Origin: Escherichia phage vB_EcoM-pEK20
Length of the DNA: 64,000 bases
Sequence record: MZ868638.1
Direction: 5' to 3' (one strand)
The notes under the pieces were generated by a model. It saw only the letters and a program-made list of their open reading frames with translations. It was not told where the DNA came from and made no database searches. Positions 1 through 11,712 of this stretch are shown piece by piece; position 1 is the first letter of the stretch, and every line of letters begins with the position of its first letter. Position numbers and translations under genes: made by a program.

Positions 1-306
1 TTTTATTTTAACGAACGTGAAACAGTTATTTCCGATAGGTTAATTAATTCGCTGTATCAGCATGCTGATTATGTCTATTTTCAAAATGAATTCGGACATT
101 GGAAGTTTCTTAAAAACCGTTCCGGGTTAACTAGTTTTGAATACTTTGACCGTAAAGACCTTTTAAACGAAATTCCATTACAACATAGGTTCCAGAAACG
201 CGAATCACTATACTATTGTCGTCATATACCAAATGCTGAATGTGTTGATGAAGTAATTAATCTATGGCGTAGACGTAGAGAACAAATTGATGATATGTCA
301 AAATAA
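1..306 (+). CDS. hypothetical protein, 5' end outside window (C-terminal ~101 aa)
   Basis: Frame 1 open from nt 1 to TAA 304-306; no homolog recognised. Confidence 0.4.
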   Translation, partial: FYFNERETVISDRLINSLYQHADYVYFQNEFGHWKFLKNRSGLTSFEYFDRKDLLNEIPLQHRFQKRESLYYCRHIPNAECVDEVINLWRRRREQIDDMSK

Positions 307-475
307 GAAGCCGGGTCGCTACCGGCAAGTCGTCGGACTGATGTTCCCTGAGTAAGGACTGGTCTTAATAAATCTTTATGATTTGTTAATATCCCCTTAC
401 ATCACAGCAGAAACGGCGCAAAGAATTATCGATTCGAGGAAATATCTTTGCCGTAAGCCGAGTAGCGTTTTTGAC

Positions 476-567
476 GGAACGTTCGGATATGGTCGAGATA
501 TGGCCTTTTAAAAATATTGAGTAGCGTCAACTGCTTAATAACCGGGTTCGAATCCCGGCGTTTCGTA
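476..567 (+). ncRNA. tRNA-like remnant or small stable RNA (non-canonical cloverleaf)
   Basis: T-arm ccggg-TTCGAAT-cccgg at 543-559; 476-482 cggaacg can pair with 560-566 cgtttcg; D and anticodon arms do not fold canonically. Confidence 0.2.
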
Positions 568-610
568 CAAACACTTGCCTTAGTAGGTGGAAACCCCGAC
601 AAGGTATATA

Positions 611-639
611 GCCCCTTCCGAAAGGTTGGGGCTTTTTTG
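611..639 (+). terminator. rho-independent terminator
   Basis: stem gcccc 612-616 / ggggc 629-633 followed by T-run 634-639. Confidence 0.7.
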
Positions 640-640
640 T

Positions 641-648
641 ATAAATAT
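641..648 (+). promoter_or_regulatory. T4-type late promoter core TATAAATA
   Basis: exact TATAAATA 35 nt upstream of internal-protein-like gene at 683. Confidence 0.5.
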
Positions 649-8774: not shown

Positions 8775-9263
8775 ATGAATATATTTGAAATGCTTCGTAA
8801 TGACGAAGGTCTTAGACTGACTTTATACAAAGACACTGAAGGCTTTTGGACGATTGGCATAGGCCATTTAGTAACAAAGAACCCGTCTTTAGCCGTAGCT
8901 AAAGCTGAACTTGACAGAATGATCGGACGTAAATGCAACGGTACAATTACCCTTGATGAGGCTGAAAAGTTATTTAATGAAGACGTTGATAAAGCTGTTC
9001 GCGGAATCTTGGGTAATGCTAAACTTAAACCGGTATATGATTCTTTAGATGCAGTTCGTCGATGTGCATTGGTCAATATGGTCTTCCAAATGGGTGTAGC
9101 AGGCGTCGCTGGTTTTACTAATTCTCTTCGTATGCTTCAACAGAAACGTTGGGACGAAGCGGCAGTAAATCTAGCCCAATCTAAATGGTATCGTCAGACA
9201 CCTAATCGCGCGAAACGCGTAATCTCAACATTTAAAACAGGAACTTGGAAAGCGTATATATGA
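8775..9263 (+). CDS. e: endolysin, T4 lysozyme
   Basis: MNIFEMLR...GHLLTK...[27 protein letters not shown] closely matches T4 gpe; SD gggagg. Confidence 0.95.
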
Positions 9264-9541
9264 AAACATATAGTGAATTTTTATCAGAATCTATTCTTAA
9301 CGAAGCTACTGACACATTTGCAACTAAGCTAGGTGCAGCTTTGGTTGAAGCTGAAAGTTTATTAGCACGTATTTCTGAACTTGCTAGTAAGATAGATACT
9401 CGCAAATTTGAGCGCACCAGTGATATCGTTAAGCTTGAAGCCTTGTTGCGTATGTGCGATAAACCGGAAGAAATCGCTAAGAACGGCTCGCTGATGAAAC
9501 AACGTCTTGAAAAATATATTTCAGGCGCTTCAGAAAAATAG
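9260..9541 (+). CDS. internal protein (capsid-targeting sequence [10 protein letters not shown]), IPII/IPIII-like
   Basis: T4 IP leader consensus at N-terminus; ATGA overlap with e stop; position between e and denV. Confidence 0.6.
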
Positions 9542-9542
9542 T

Positions 9543-9572
9543 GTTTACTTCCTCCAAGGGTTTTGATACTAT
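9543..9572 (+). promoter_or_regulatory. early promoter upstream of denV
   Basis: -35 gtttac 9543-9548, -10 tactat 9567-9572. Confidence 0.55.
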
Positions 9573-9599
9573 ACATTCATCAACTACTTGGAGGAAATT

Positions 9600-10013
9600 A
9601 TGACTCGTATCAATTTAACACTTGTTTCTGAACTGGCCGACCAACATCTTATGGCTGAGTATCGTGAATTACCACGCGTATTTGGTGCAGTCCGTAAACA
9701 TGTTCAAAACGGTAAACGTGTAAAGGATTTTAAAATCTCTCCAACATTTATCTTAGGCACAGGTCACGTAACATTCTTTTACGACAAACTCGAATTTTTA
9801 CGTTTACGCCAAATCGAGCTAATCGCTGAATGCTTGAAACGTGGTTTCAAAATCAAGGACACGACTGTCCAGGATATTTCCGACATCCCTGCCGAATTTC
9901 GTAATAATTATGTCCCGTCCGAAGCGTCCATTGCGATAAGTCAAGCACGCTTAGATGAAAAAATTGCTCAACGTCCGACTTGGTACAAATACTATGGTAA
10001 ATCAATTTACTAA
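9600..10013 (+). CDS. denV: endonuclease V, pyrimidine-dimer DNA glycosylase
   Basis: [28 protein letters not shown]... matches T4 DenV. Confidence 0.95.
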
Positions 10014-10019
10014 GGAAAA

Positions 10020-10136
10020 ATGAAAATGTATCAAGAATTTATCATTGAAGCAGAGGCCAAAGGTCCTAAAGTAGATGTTGACGATATTGGATATGATTTT
10101 AACAACTTCGGAATTATTTCTGGCGGTAAAGCTTAA
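10020..10136 (+). CDS. mini internal-protein-like ORF (38 aa) with capsid-targeting leader MKMYQEFIIE
   Basis: SD aagga then ATG 10020; not in ORF track because <60 aa. Confidence 0.35.
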   Translation: MKMYQEFIIEAEAKGPKVDVDDIGYDFNNFGIISGGKA

Positions 10137-10139
10137 ACG

Positions 10140-10169
10140 GTTTACGCTTAAGTATTAATATGGTATAAT
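10140..10169 (+). promoter_or_regulatory. early promoter
   Basis: -35 gtttac 10140-10145, extended -10 tggtataat, tataat 10164-10169. Confidence 0.65.
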
Positions 10170-10199
10170 TGCTCTATCAAAACAAACAAGGAAACAAAA

Positions 10200-10514
10200 A
10201 TGAAAACCTATAAAGAATTTATTGCAGAATCCGCCAACCAACGCGTTGAAGGTGGTTATATTTGGATTGAACAAGTTGAGCCACCGAGCCGCACTTCTAC
10301 AGGTAAATGGAAAATTACTGTTGATGGTCCTGGTGGTAAACGTAGGACTCTTAAAGAAATTAATGGGTACTATGAAGAAGCTCTTTCGGATGCAGGAACT
10401 TACATGATGCAAATCATGATTAAAAACCCTGAAAACCGTTTTGCAGCTAAAGTCTTCCGCCGTATTGGTAATAAACTTTATGATGCATATTCTAAAAACT
10501 TCCCTAAAGAATAA
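10200..10514 (+). CDS. internal protein (leader MKTYKEFIAE)
   Basis: T4 IP leader consensus; ~100 aa basic protein. Confidence 0.6.
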   Translation: MKTYKEFIAESANQRVEGGYIWIEQVEPPSRTSTGKWKITVDGPGGKRRTLKEINGYYEEALSDAGTYMMQIMIKNPENRFAAKVFRRIGNKLYDAYSKNFPKE

Positions 10515-10540
10515 CATAAATTAAAACAATAGGAAAAAAA

Positions 10541-10843
10541 ATGAAAACATATCAAGAATTTATTACTGAAGCGCGAGTGAGTGCAGGTAAATTAGAAGCC
10601 GCTATAAATAAAAAGGCCCATTCATTTCATGATTTGTCCGATAAAGACCGTAAGAAACTTGTAAGCCTTTATATTGACAAAGAGCGTATTCTCGCTCTTC
10701 CTGGCGCTAATGAAGGTAAACAGGCCAAGCCTTTGAATGCCGTCGAAAAGAAAATTGATAACTTTGCTTCTAAATTCGGTATGTCTATGGATGACCTTCA
10801 GCAAGCGGCTATCGAAGCAGCTAAAGTAATTAAAGGTAAATAA
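10541..10843 (+). CDS. internal protein (leader MKTYQEFITE)
   Basis: T4 IP leader consensus; SD aggaaa. Confidence 0.6.
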   Translation: MKTYQEFITEARVSAGKLEAAINKKAHSFHDLSDKDRKKLVSLYIDKERILALPGANEGKQAKPLNAVEKKIDNFASKFGMSMDDLQQAAIEAAKVIKGK

Positions 10844-10845
10844 CA

Positions 10846-10874
10846 GTTTACTTTCTCCTAGAATTGTGATAGTA
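10846..10874 (+). promoter_or_regulatory. early promoter (diverged copy of the denV promoter)
   Basis: -35 gtttac 10846-10851, -10 tagtat 10869-10874. Confidence 0.5.
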
Positions 10875-10900
10875 TATTCATAATTACTTGGATGGGTAAA

Positions 10901-10999
10901 ATGACTTATATTAATTTGACTTTAGTATCTAAATTTGCTGATCAACATTTAATCGCCGAATACTGTGAATTGCCACGTGTTTTTTGGTATAATTCGTAA
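10901..10999 (+). pseudogene. denV 5' fragment (frameshifted, truncated second copy)
   Basis: [28 protein letters not shown] then stop; deleting one T restores GIIRKHV matching DenV GAVRKHV. Confidence 0.6.
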
Positions 11000-11172
11000 A
11001 CACGTGGCAAAAATATTTACATTCAAATAAAATGGGAACAACCTGGACCTCATGATTCTATGAGGGATTCCCGCCAACCTGTAATAAGGTCGAGCCCAAG
11101 TGCGGTAATGGGTAAATACAGAAATGGACAATTCATGCGCCACGGAACGGCCCCAACCTTAAGAGAAACTAA

Positions 11173-11712
11173 ATGAGAACATTTTTAACCGGACCTTATC
11201 TATCCCTGATGAATGCTTTTACACACCATTCTGATGCTAGAGTAGAAGAAATTTGTAAGAACGGTTATGCCCCACCATTTGAAGACGTACTCAAGCAGTA
11301 CTGTACACTTCGTTTAGACGGTGGCAGACAATCCGGTAAATCAATTGCTGTGACTAATTTTGCTGCTAATTGGTTGTATGATGGCGGAACGGTTATTGTT
11401 CTTTCTAATACTTCAGCTTATGCTAAAATTTCTGCTGGCAACATTGAAAAAGAATTTTCTCGTTATTCTAGCGACGATATTCGATTCCGTTTATTTACTG
11501 ATTCTGTTCGTAGTTTTATTGGTAATGAAGGACATAAATTCCGTGGATTAACACTTTCTCGTATTCTGTACATAATTGACGAGCCTATTAAAGCTCCTGA
11601 TATGGATAAGATTTACGACATCCATATTAAAACAGTCCAACACTGTTGCAAAAGCAAATATTGCATCGGCGGTAATGCTCGTCCTCAATTTTTTGTGATT
11701 GGAATGCAATGA
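11173..11712 (+). CDS. P-loop NTPase, function unknown
   Basis: Walker A DGGRQSGKS and Walker B-like LYIIDEP. Confidence 0.5.
   Translation: MRTFLTGPYLSLMNAFTHHSDARVEEICKNGYAPPFEDVLKQYCTLRLDGGRQSGKSIAVTNFAANWLYDGGTVIVLSNTSAYAKISAGNIEKEFSRYSSDDIRFRLFTDSVRSFIGNEGHKFRGLTLSRILYIIDEPIKAPDMDKIYDIHIKTVQHCCKSKYCIGGNARPQFFVIGMQ

Follow-up and report, generated by a model that had tools for sequence, protein, structure and literature searches.

The region between gene e and vs.8 of Escherichia phage vB_EcoM-pEK20 (sequence record MZ868638.1) carries a row of short genes around denV that open with nearly the same ten residues and continue into unrelated bodies. This raises the question of what such genes may contribute to the phage, and whether a distant gene with a looser form of the leader belongs to the same class. 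The question was addressed in a stretch of 64,000 nucleotides, hereafter the window, that contains both. The window is 99% identical to the genome of Mosigvirus JS09, in which most of the leader-bearing genes are already annotated. The region is read here, with a probability of about 85%, as the polymorphic ip locus of a T4-like Mosigvirus phage (RB69/JS09 group), encoding head proteins that bear a capsid-targeting sequence (CTS). The features on which the analysis draws are the following.

640-647, + strand: T4-type late promoter, exact TATAAATA, 35 nt before the ATG at 683 and preceded by a terminator-like hairpin and T-run
683-1309, + strand: candidate internal head protein of 208 aa (phrog_2280) with the CTS-like leader MYTFNEFLAE; basic, mature pI about 9.7
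8743 and 8736: near-consensus late promoters upstream of e, AATAAATA and TATAAGTA, respectively
8775-9263, + strand: gene e (lysozyme), given as context
9260-9541, + strand: IP93, internal head protein of 93 aa, Ip5-related family phrog_3499 (E = 1e-46)
9600-10013, + strand: denV (endonuclease V), intact copy; Pyr_excise family, 92% amino acid identity to T4 DenV
10020-10136, + strand: 38-aa ORF, a deletion derivative of the RB69ORF125c family (86 aa), from DNA alignment with RB69 and phi25-307
10141-10169, + strand: T4-early-type sigma-70 promoter upstream of Ip10, TTTACG-17-TATAAT with TG; best-scoring site, 10/12
10200-10514, + strand: Ip10, 104 aa, leader MKTYKEFIAE, phrog_3966; JS09 note 'Ip10, phage Pol CAA84455'
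10541-10843, + strand: IpII, 100 aa, leader MKTYQEFITE, phrog_7857 (E = 4.5e-55)
10901-11011, + strand: decayed fragment from the 5' end of a second denV; a promoter copy of its own lies at 10846-10900

The leader and its occurrence in the window

A scan of every ATG, GTG and TTG start in six frames of the whole window yielded five ORFs that match M[KY][TM][YF]xEF[IL]xE, namely 683, 9260, 10020, 10200 and 10541, all of them on the + strand. The core [YF]xEF[ILV]xE occurred in no frame of the window outside these five, and 30 shuffles of the window produced no strict matches and a mean of 0.07 loose ones; relaxing the pattern still further (^M..[YF].[EDQN]F) added two ORFs, both unrelated. Tyr or Phe at position 4 and Phe at position 7, the capsid-targeting determinants, are present in 5/5 ORFs, and residues 8-10 conform to the gp21 motif (I/L)-x-E in each case (LAE in 683, LSE in 9260, IIE in 10020, IAE in 10200 and ITE in 10541). 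Mutagenesis of the T4 CTS assigned targeting to the aromatic residue at position 4 and to Phe7, and gp21 processing to I/L8 and Glu10 (Mullaney & Black 1996, as far as the account in PMC9026906 goes); in the same work, to the extent that it is related in PMC9026906 and PMC3012670, the CTS by itself was enough to package foreign proteins in T4.

Behind the leader the five products part company. All-against-all blastp confined the similarity to the first 11-19 residues, with one exception (10541 versus 9260, 28 gapped columns aligned), and at the level of sequence the bodies are thus mutually unrelated. The leaders together with their ribosome-binding sites form direct DNA repeats of about 30-36 nt, which are 77-89% identical. 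The original prediction had named the same five ORFs and no others, had called their bodies unrelated, and had placed four of them (9260, 10020, 10200 and 10541) around denV, which they do flank; all of this holds. The motif that it described is likewise real, but had been written with one x too many, the proper form being EF(L/I)xE rather than EF(L/I)xxE.

The route established in T4 suggests how such products would act. The 10-residue CTS of each precursor would bind the gp22 scaffolding core during prohead assembly, and the gp21 prohead protease would cleave after Glu10 of (I/L)-x-E. The mature protein would then remain in the head beside the DNA and be ejected with it into the host, in whose cytoplasm it would block a particular first-response enzyme before the sugar-modified DNA is cut. 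The JS09 genome encodes gp21, gp22, gp67 and gp68, that is, a T4-type prohead core and protease, from genes situated outside the window, and it also has ipI, some 2 kb before the window begins; IpIII is absent from the window.

Scans of the five proteins with Pfam, NCBIfam and PADLOC returned nothing above curated cut-offs, and a PDB sequence search with four of them returned no relatives. Weak matches to CsgH and to a TonB linker were rejected as noise or low complexity. In the literature, proteomic data on virions were sought for Mosigvirus, JS98, fHe-Yen9-01 and JS09, and none of relevance came to light.

The 683 family

The leader of ORF 683 departs from the common form in having Tyr for Lys at position 2 and Phe for Tyr at position 4, and the homologues in Dhakavirus bear the canonical MKTYNEFLNE. 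The family spans at least four genera (Mosigvirus, Dhakavirus, Karamvirus and Marfavirus) and is labelled 'hypothetical protein' in all 138 phage records. Its leader is kept among homologues of only 33-35% identity, and also among members with a different C-terminal domain; as the DNA is no longer alike at such distances, this conservation of the protein sequence points to selection acting on the peptide. Residues 14-16 (ITE) form a second site of the gp21 type, with Glu16 invariant in the family within the motif [IL]-[ST]-E-A-G, and the propeptide would probably comprise 16 residues.

The late promoter of 683 is kept in four genera: the hairpin and TATAAATA likewise precede the homologous genes of JS98 and PG7, while Marfa has CATAAATA. 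The window has six exact copies of TATAAATA, each of them on the + strand. The other leader-bearing genes have no dedicated exact late promoter, nor do T4 ipI, ipII and ipIII. Because four genera keep both the leader and the late promoter, 683 can be considered, on sequence grounds, a credible unrecognised internal protein; its product would most likely be another member of the class, expressed strictly late, with the variant leader MxxFxEFLxE.

Past its first 25 or so residues, ORF 683 could not be related by sequence to any of the proven internal proteins. Alignment of the family with IpIII by hhalign covered the first ~25 residues only, at a probability of 21%, which does not establish homology. 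The AlphaFold2 model of the product comprises two helical domains with a disordered linker, rich in Pro and Lys, between them, and a Foldseek search of the PDB with this model retrieved generic helical hairpins only (best E = 1.8).

Such features could also be those of a late prohead core or scaffold-associated assembly factor, which would be degraded or retained in the capsid instead of being injected as an effector. The dedicated and conserved late promoter would suit this role, given that the classical ip genes have early promoters, as would the conservation across four or more genera in place of presence and absence among close relatives, and the long helical C-terminal domain predicted next to the Pro/Lys-rich linker. 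Nevertheless, homologues are absent from T4, T2, T6 and RB69 (the JS09 note points to JS98, not to RB69), so that T4-type heads must be able to assemble without the protein; the gene is located in the accessory tRNA-e.8 region, outside the head gene cluster, and its product resembles IpIII in size and charge. An assembly factor is therefore considered unlikely, although it deserves to be kept in mind.

A tentative reading, with chances somewhat short of even, would make 683 a member of a so far unlabelled internal-protein family that, unlike the classical ip genes, is strictly late, extends over at least four genera and has a swappable C-terminal domain. On this reading its function could differ from the GmrSD inhibition exerted by Ip1-3. 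The family represents a modest lead, through which injected proteins could become known from phage genera other than the T-evens.

The locus between e and vs.8

The order of the locus is e, IP93 (Ip5-like), denV, the IP86 remnant, Ip10, IpII, the denV fragment and vs.8, and across eight phages the e-vs.8 interval holds six CTS families in differing combinations. The stop codon of e overlaps the start of the 9260 gene (ATGA), and translation of IP93 is probably coupled to that of e. IP93 recurs with 100% identity in many records of Tequatrovirus and Mosigvirus, bears the RefSeq name 'internal head protein', is not basic (mature pI 6.3) and contains several internal (I/L)xE sites. ORF 10200 is homologous over its full length to proteins named Ip10, with 72% identity to that of Shigella phage SP18, and the promoters upstream of T4 ipI, ipII and ipIII share the architecture of its own promoter; the AlphaFold2 model of Ip10, with a mean pLDDT of 48, was too poor for a fold search. 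By analogy with T4, IP93 and Ip10 would be packaged proteins of the same kind. Along its whole length of 100 residues, ORF 10541 matches T4 IpII with 93% identity (E = 3e-66), differing from it at 7 residues. The exact TATAAATA at 10603 was rejected as a promoter: it lies inside ipII, with an Ile codon in place of a Val codon of T4, and its count is at chance level.

The gene at 10020 is of a different nature. An in-frame loss of 144 bp has removed 48 internal codons of 86, and the leader MKMYQEFIIE is now followed closely by the last 24 residues of the protein, so that 28 mature residues stand in place of the RB69ORF125c-type body of about 76; the product is not basic. With the 86-aa protein as query, 217 records matched, and the short form appeared only in low-identity gapped matches, e.g. 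JS09 and MRostami-2023e. From the alignment, ORF 10020 is a remnant and not an intact gene; its function has probably been lost, and it should not be counted as an effector. Farther along, positions 10535-11011 align colinearly, at 88% nucleotide identity, with T4 ipII and the opening ~110 nt of denV, also in a three-way alignment, and the second denV fragment retains 82% amino acid identity over 28 residues; as judged from this colinearity, the fragment is a relic of a T4-type ipII-denV junction. A structured RNA proposed for the GC-rich stretch at 11000-11170 was discarded: Rfam gave no match at E ≤ 1, and the stretch aligns colinearly with T4 vs.8, in the part that codes for the N-terminus.

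The known Ip proteins are specific to the host GmrSD variant and give no cross-protection. The cluster at 9260-10843 is itself largely known, in that CTS proteins, their hypervariability and an anti-type-IV role have been published and the genes are annotated in near-identical genomes. The model of injected anti-restriction proteins reportedly goes back to Repoila in 1994, Bair in 2007 and Silas in 2025.

In T4, Ip1, Ip2 and Ip3 are inhibitors of three different type IV restriction enzymes of the GmrSD kind (PMC12373910), and IPIII, which is required on ECOR17, still works if a form lacking the CTS is provided in the cytoplasm (PMC9391042). Ip4-10 had no reproducible target in a GmrSD panel (PMC12373910, section 10, Supplementary Fig. 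9), and an anti-defence role is thus shown only for the IpII homologue, through its T4 allele, whereas for IP93 and Ip10 it would be an extrapolation. By analogy with T4 Ip2, the target of IpII would most likely be a type IV restriction enzyme of the BrxU/GmrSD-ECOR21 type.

These results trim the original prediction in three respects. Its four internal-protein genes at the cluster become 9260, 10200 and 10541, the fourth being the remnant at 10020; its anti-defence effectors stand in the case of the IpII homologue and lack a reproducible GmrSD target for the Ip4-10 group; and its proposal that the effectors are matched to the sugar on the phage DNA is not supported. In Mosigvirus the DNA is arabinosylated, and BrxU cleaves it (PMC13390438); JS09 carries an RB69-type arabinosyltransferase (PMC6024577). 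The cassette IP93-denV-Ip10-IpII, however, shows 97.5-99.3% nucleotide identity to Tequatrovirus W143, a member of a genus with a different DNA sugar, while the flanks have diverged to 65-81%. The effectors thus move between genera with different DNA sugars, and so follow the enzymes of the host and not the sugar of the phage itself. The cassette passes, moreover, between genera formerly thought to be genetically isolated. The leader-coding repeats (~30-36 nt) and the doubled 5' end of denV are short homologies of the kind used to shuffle cassettes between phages.

Internal proteins might, on the other hand, serve mainly as structural cargo, i.e. as basic counter-ions or spacers for DNA condensation and ejection, most of those besides Ip1-3 having no specific anti-defence target. 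In accordance with this, 3/5 mature products are strongly basic (pI 9.6-9.7), a T4 head contains ~1000 internal-protein molecules whose lysines touch DNA phosphates (PMC3012670), and Ip4-10 inhibited none of the tested GmrSD enzymes reproducibly. Yet 3/3 of the closely studied T4 internal proteins are specific GmrSD inhibitors (PMC12373910), the unrelated bodies and their presence and absence among close relatives suggest arms-race cargo instead of a conserved structural need, and neither IP93 nor the 38-aa remnant is basic, which together make a mainly structural role improbable. Similarly improbable, finally, is that the leaders are a by-product of cassette shuffling, as a mobile translation-initiation/5'-coding module whose carriers, notably the 38-aa ORF and ORF 683, need not all be packaged: the direct repeats, the visibly mosaic locus with its duplicated denV 5' end, the origin of the 38-aa ORF by deletion and the mobile regulatory cassettes of T4-type genomes (as far as PMC2839356 describes them) would agree with it, but the residues kept are the very CTS residues mapped by mutagenesis, the 683 leader persists at 33-35% protein identity and despite a swapped C-terminal domain, and the CTS alone packages foreign proteins in T4 (on the account in PMC9026906).

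Comparison with known internal proteins

As a polymorphic ip locus, the region can be set beside the internal proteins described in related phages. Ip10 of phages Pol, PP01 and SP18 (Repoila et al. 1994) is the counterpart of ORF 10200, for which proteins annotated as Ip10 in records of Tequatrovirus and Mosigvirus show identities of 96-100%, the annotation in PP01 being 'ip10'. ORF 9260 shares 48-51% of its residues with Ip5 from T2 and PP01 (Repoila et al. 1994), but represents a paralogous family next to e and not at the ipI locus. ORF 10541 shares with T4 Ip2 a near-identical leader and a position directly upstream of a denV 5' end; it differs in residing in a phage with arabinosylated, not glucosylated, cytosines, and in having only a fragment of denV downstream. 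With the RB69ORF125c family ('internal head protein', 86 aa), ORF 10020 has in common the leader, the C-terminal 24 residues and the place between denV and Ip10, whereas the 48 internal codons are missing and the short form is confined to JS09-like records.

ORF 683 is comparable to T4 Ip3 in size (208 versus 193 aa) and charge, and the weak N-terminal similarity of ~25 residues reaches past the CTS; its body, however, has no significant homology to Ip3, and it occupies a different locus (tRNA-e.8) under a late promoter of its own. Although no ORF of the window is homologous to T4 IPI beyond the leader, which in IPI extends to 19 residues, IPI* (the inhibitor of GmrSD-CT596) has the targeting, processing and ejection logic in common with the proteins considered here and provides the paradigm for their proposed function.

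A leader shared by five ORFs

The leader motif M[KY][TM][YF]xEF[IL]xE opens exactly five ORFs in a six-frame scan of the window that took in all ATG, GTG and TTG starts:

683-1309: ORF 683, 208 aa; phrog_2280, "unknown function"
9260-9541: IP93, 93 aa; phrog_3499, "internal head protein"
10020-10136: 38-aa ORF, deletion remnant of the 86-aa internal protein RB69ORF125c
10200-10514: Ip10; phage Pol's Ip10 is the reference given in the JS09 record
10541-10843: IpII, sharing 93% identity with T4 IpII along the entire 100 residues; phrog_7857, "internal virion protein"

The core motif has no further occurrence in any frame of the window, 30 shuffled windows yielded no strict match, and a far looser pattern added just two ORFs, both unrelated. 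The leaders keep the positions which, according to the mapping of Mullaney and Black as described in PMC9026906, serve capsid targeting (4 and 7) and processing by the prohead protease gp21 (8 and 10); gp21 cleaves on the C-terminal side of Glu, in motifs like ITE and LTE (PMC5694885). Together with their ribosome-binding sites, the leaders form direct DNA repeats of 30-36 nt (77-89% identity). In an all-against-all blastp of the five proteins, no similarity extended beyond the N-terminal 11-19 residues (in one pair, 28 gapped columns), and the bodies are therefore unrelated. The original prediction of a common capsid-targeting sequence (CTS) on mutually unrelated bodies is borne out, except that its pattern has a superfluous residue between (L/I) and E.

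Known internal proteins at a polymorphic locus

The main cluster is already annotated in near-identical public genomes. Window 8700-11200 matches vB_EcoM_JS09 (Mosigvirus, RB69 group) over its full length at 99.0% identity, and 858 T4-like phage records match some part of it. The JS09 annotation has the same order as the window, namely nudE, e (lysozyme), a 93-aa ORF, denV, a short ORF, Ip10, IpII, a denV fragment and vs.8; T4 has e-ipIII-ipII-denV-vs.8 in the equivalent place. Genes for the T4-type prohead core and protease (gp22, gp21, gp67, gp68) are also present in JS09, where an ipI gene precedes the window start by about 2 kb.

Three of the four predicted clustered genes (9260, 10200 and 10541) stand. 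Numerous genomes of Tequatrovirus and Mosigvirus carry IP93 at 100% identity, and ip5 of T2 and PP01 shares 48-51% identity with it; a protein 96-100% identical to that of ORF 10200 carries the ip10 label in PP01 and others, and Ip10 of SP18 is 72% identical to it. The fourth, at 10020, is not intact: when aligned with RB69 and phi25-307 it shows a clean in-frame loss of 144 bp (48 codons), bounded by two short CCTAAA repeats. The full-length 86-aa form has matches in 217 records, and the short form only low-identity gapped ones (e.g., JS09 and MRostami-2023e).

RefSeq starts the 86-aa/38-aa protein at Met3 (MYQEF...) in JS09, phi25-307, ST0 and p000v, omitting the MKMYQEF start that completes the CTS (window 10020; comparison records L001 10827, L004 1627, L007 2827 and L008 1927). 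In the RB69 reference (L003, NC_004928), the leader of the IP93 homologue (1417-1698) is scrambled, MKTYMNFYQNLSLNE, as if by two compensating frameshifts, and the Ip10 homologue (2501-2773) has a C-terminal frameshift; these lesions may be either old sequencing errors or genuine loss of targeting.

The e-vs.8 interval is a known polymorphic cassette site. Eight phages carry differing subsets of IP93, IP86 (the 86-aa family), Ip10, IpIII, IpII and IP109, with two (T4) to six (phi25-307) CTS families per interval. When window 9260-10843 is compared with Tequatrovirus W143 (L006, 1132-3550), the cassette IP93-denV-Ip10-IpII shows 97.5-99.3% nucleotide identity overall (IP93 98%, denV 98%, Ip10 97.5%, IpII 99%), and the flanks are far lower (nudE 65%, e 81%, vs.8 78.5%). 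This sharp step at the cassette edges argues for recent movement between genera, in contrast to the reported recombinational isolation of RB69-type phages from T-even phages.

Window 10535-11011 aligns colinearly, at 88% nucleotide identity, with T4 ipII and the ~110 nt that open denV; an intact denV lies 1.3 kb upstream of this 5' fragment, an arrangement that reads as a rearrangement scar. denV occurs twice, once intact and once as the decayed fragment, each preceded by a copy of the same early promoter (repeats at 9541-9720 and 10846-11011), and recombination between these direct repeats could delete the intervening denV-IP-Ip10-IpII block.

Downstream, vs.8 is seemingly split into a 38-aa ORF (11060-11176) and a 179-aa ORF (11173-11712) with an ATGA overlap; the T4 gene is one undivided ORF of 219 aa. 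An RNA element considered at the GC-rich stretch 11034-11172 was rejected, the stretch being the N-terminal coding part of vs.8.

ORF 683 and its expression

The 683 family is probably an unrecognised internal protein, and is the only, mildly, new element here. Its 138 homologue-bearing phage records all label it "hypothetical" or leave it unannotated; the record search found no homologue in T4 or RB69, and the JS09 annotation note points to JS98, not RB69. The canonical leader MKTYNEFLNE starts the Dhakavirus homologues, and Karamvirus PG7 and Marfavirus Marfa have MLNFKEFITE and MLKFKDILTE, respectively. Run against 1.84 billion representatives, a profile search returned 14 members, which keep leaders such as MITFNEFLNE, MLKFNEFLAE and MISFNEFVDG even where body identity drops under 30% or a different C-terminal domain has been substituted. 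A second gp21-type site, [IL]-[ST]-E-A-G, lies at residues 14-18, with Glu16 invariant. The mature protein is basic (pI ~9.7), and in the AlphaFold2 model two helical domains (~20-72 and 122-206) flank a disordered linker rich in Pro and Lys; Foldseek with this model gave no informative match. In representatives P0026 and P0029 the leader and N-terminal domain are joined to an unrelated C-terminal domain, which suggests domain swapping.

ORF 683 alone among the five has its own exact late promoter, TATAAATA, 35 nt upstream of its ATG and directly after a terminator-like hairpin; both elements recur upstream of the homologues in JS98, PG7 and, with one mismatch, Marfa. The exact promoter sequence occurs six times in the window, all on the + strand (640, 10603, 16169, 19566, 27271 and 60202). 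Since this count is at chance level, only copies that closely precede a start codon, for example that at 640, are likely to be real. We infer, without claiming proof, that ORF 683 encodes a head protein that is made late, targeted to the capsid and processed by gp21, and that annotation has overlooked it.

Ip10 has a strong T4-early-type promoter (10141-10169), an architecture shared by T4 ipI, ipII and ipIII, which likewise lack a dedicated exact late promoter. Near-consensus late promoters precede e, whose stop codon overlaps the ATG of 9260 (ATGA), so that IP93 is probably expressed together with lysozyme from the late message. Similarity between IpIII and the 683 family ends after ~25 residues.

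Just upstream of ORF 683, window 301-642 is 88.6% identical to the T4 rnaD and rnaC region (small stable RNAs, species 2 and 1). No feature is called there by ARAGORN or Rfam, so these tRNA-like RNAs are without an Rfam family.

Restriction enzymes as possible targets

The clustered proteins had been proposed as injected anti-defence effectors matched to the sugar on the phage DNA, a reading that is partly supported. The near-identical cassette of Tequatrovirus W143 contradicts the matching, as does the protein-level specificity of Ip1, Ip2 and Ip3: each is active against a single GmrSD variant, a different one in each case, and they do not cross-protect (PMC12373910). In Mosigvirus DNA the 5-hydroxycytosine is mono- and di-arabosylated, and BrxU, an enzyme of the GmrSD family, cuts this DNA (PMC13390438); the RB69-type arabinosyltransferase is present in JS09 (PMC6024577). 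Given this cutting and the action of Ip1-3, it is sensible to suppose, by analogy, that IpII would block an enzyme of the BrxU/GmrSD-ECOR21 type. A similar role for Ip10 and the Ip5 relative is more tentative, because Silas et al. reproduced no interaction of ip4-10 with a GmrSD panel (PMC12373910). The anti-restriction model itself is published, textbook knowledge: T4 IPI* inhibits GmrSD of strain CT596 (PMC3012670), and growth on ECOR17 needs IPIII, which is active in the cytoplasm when it lacks the CTS (PMC9391042).
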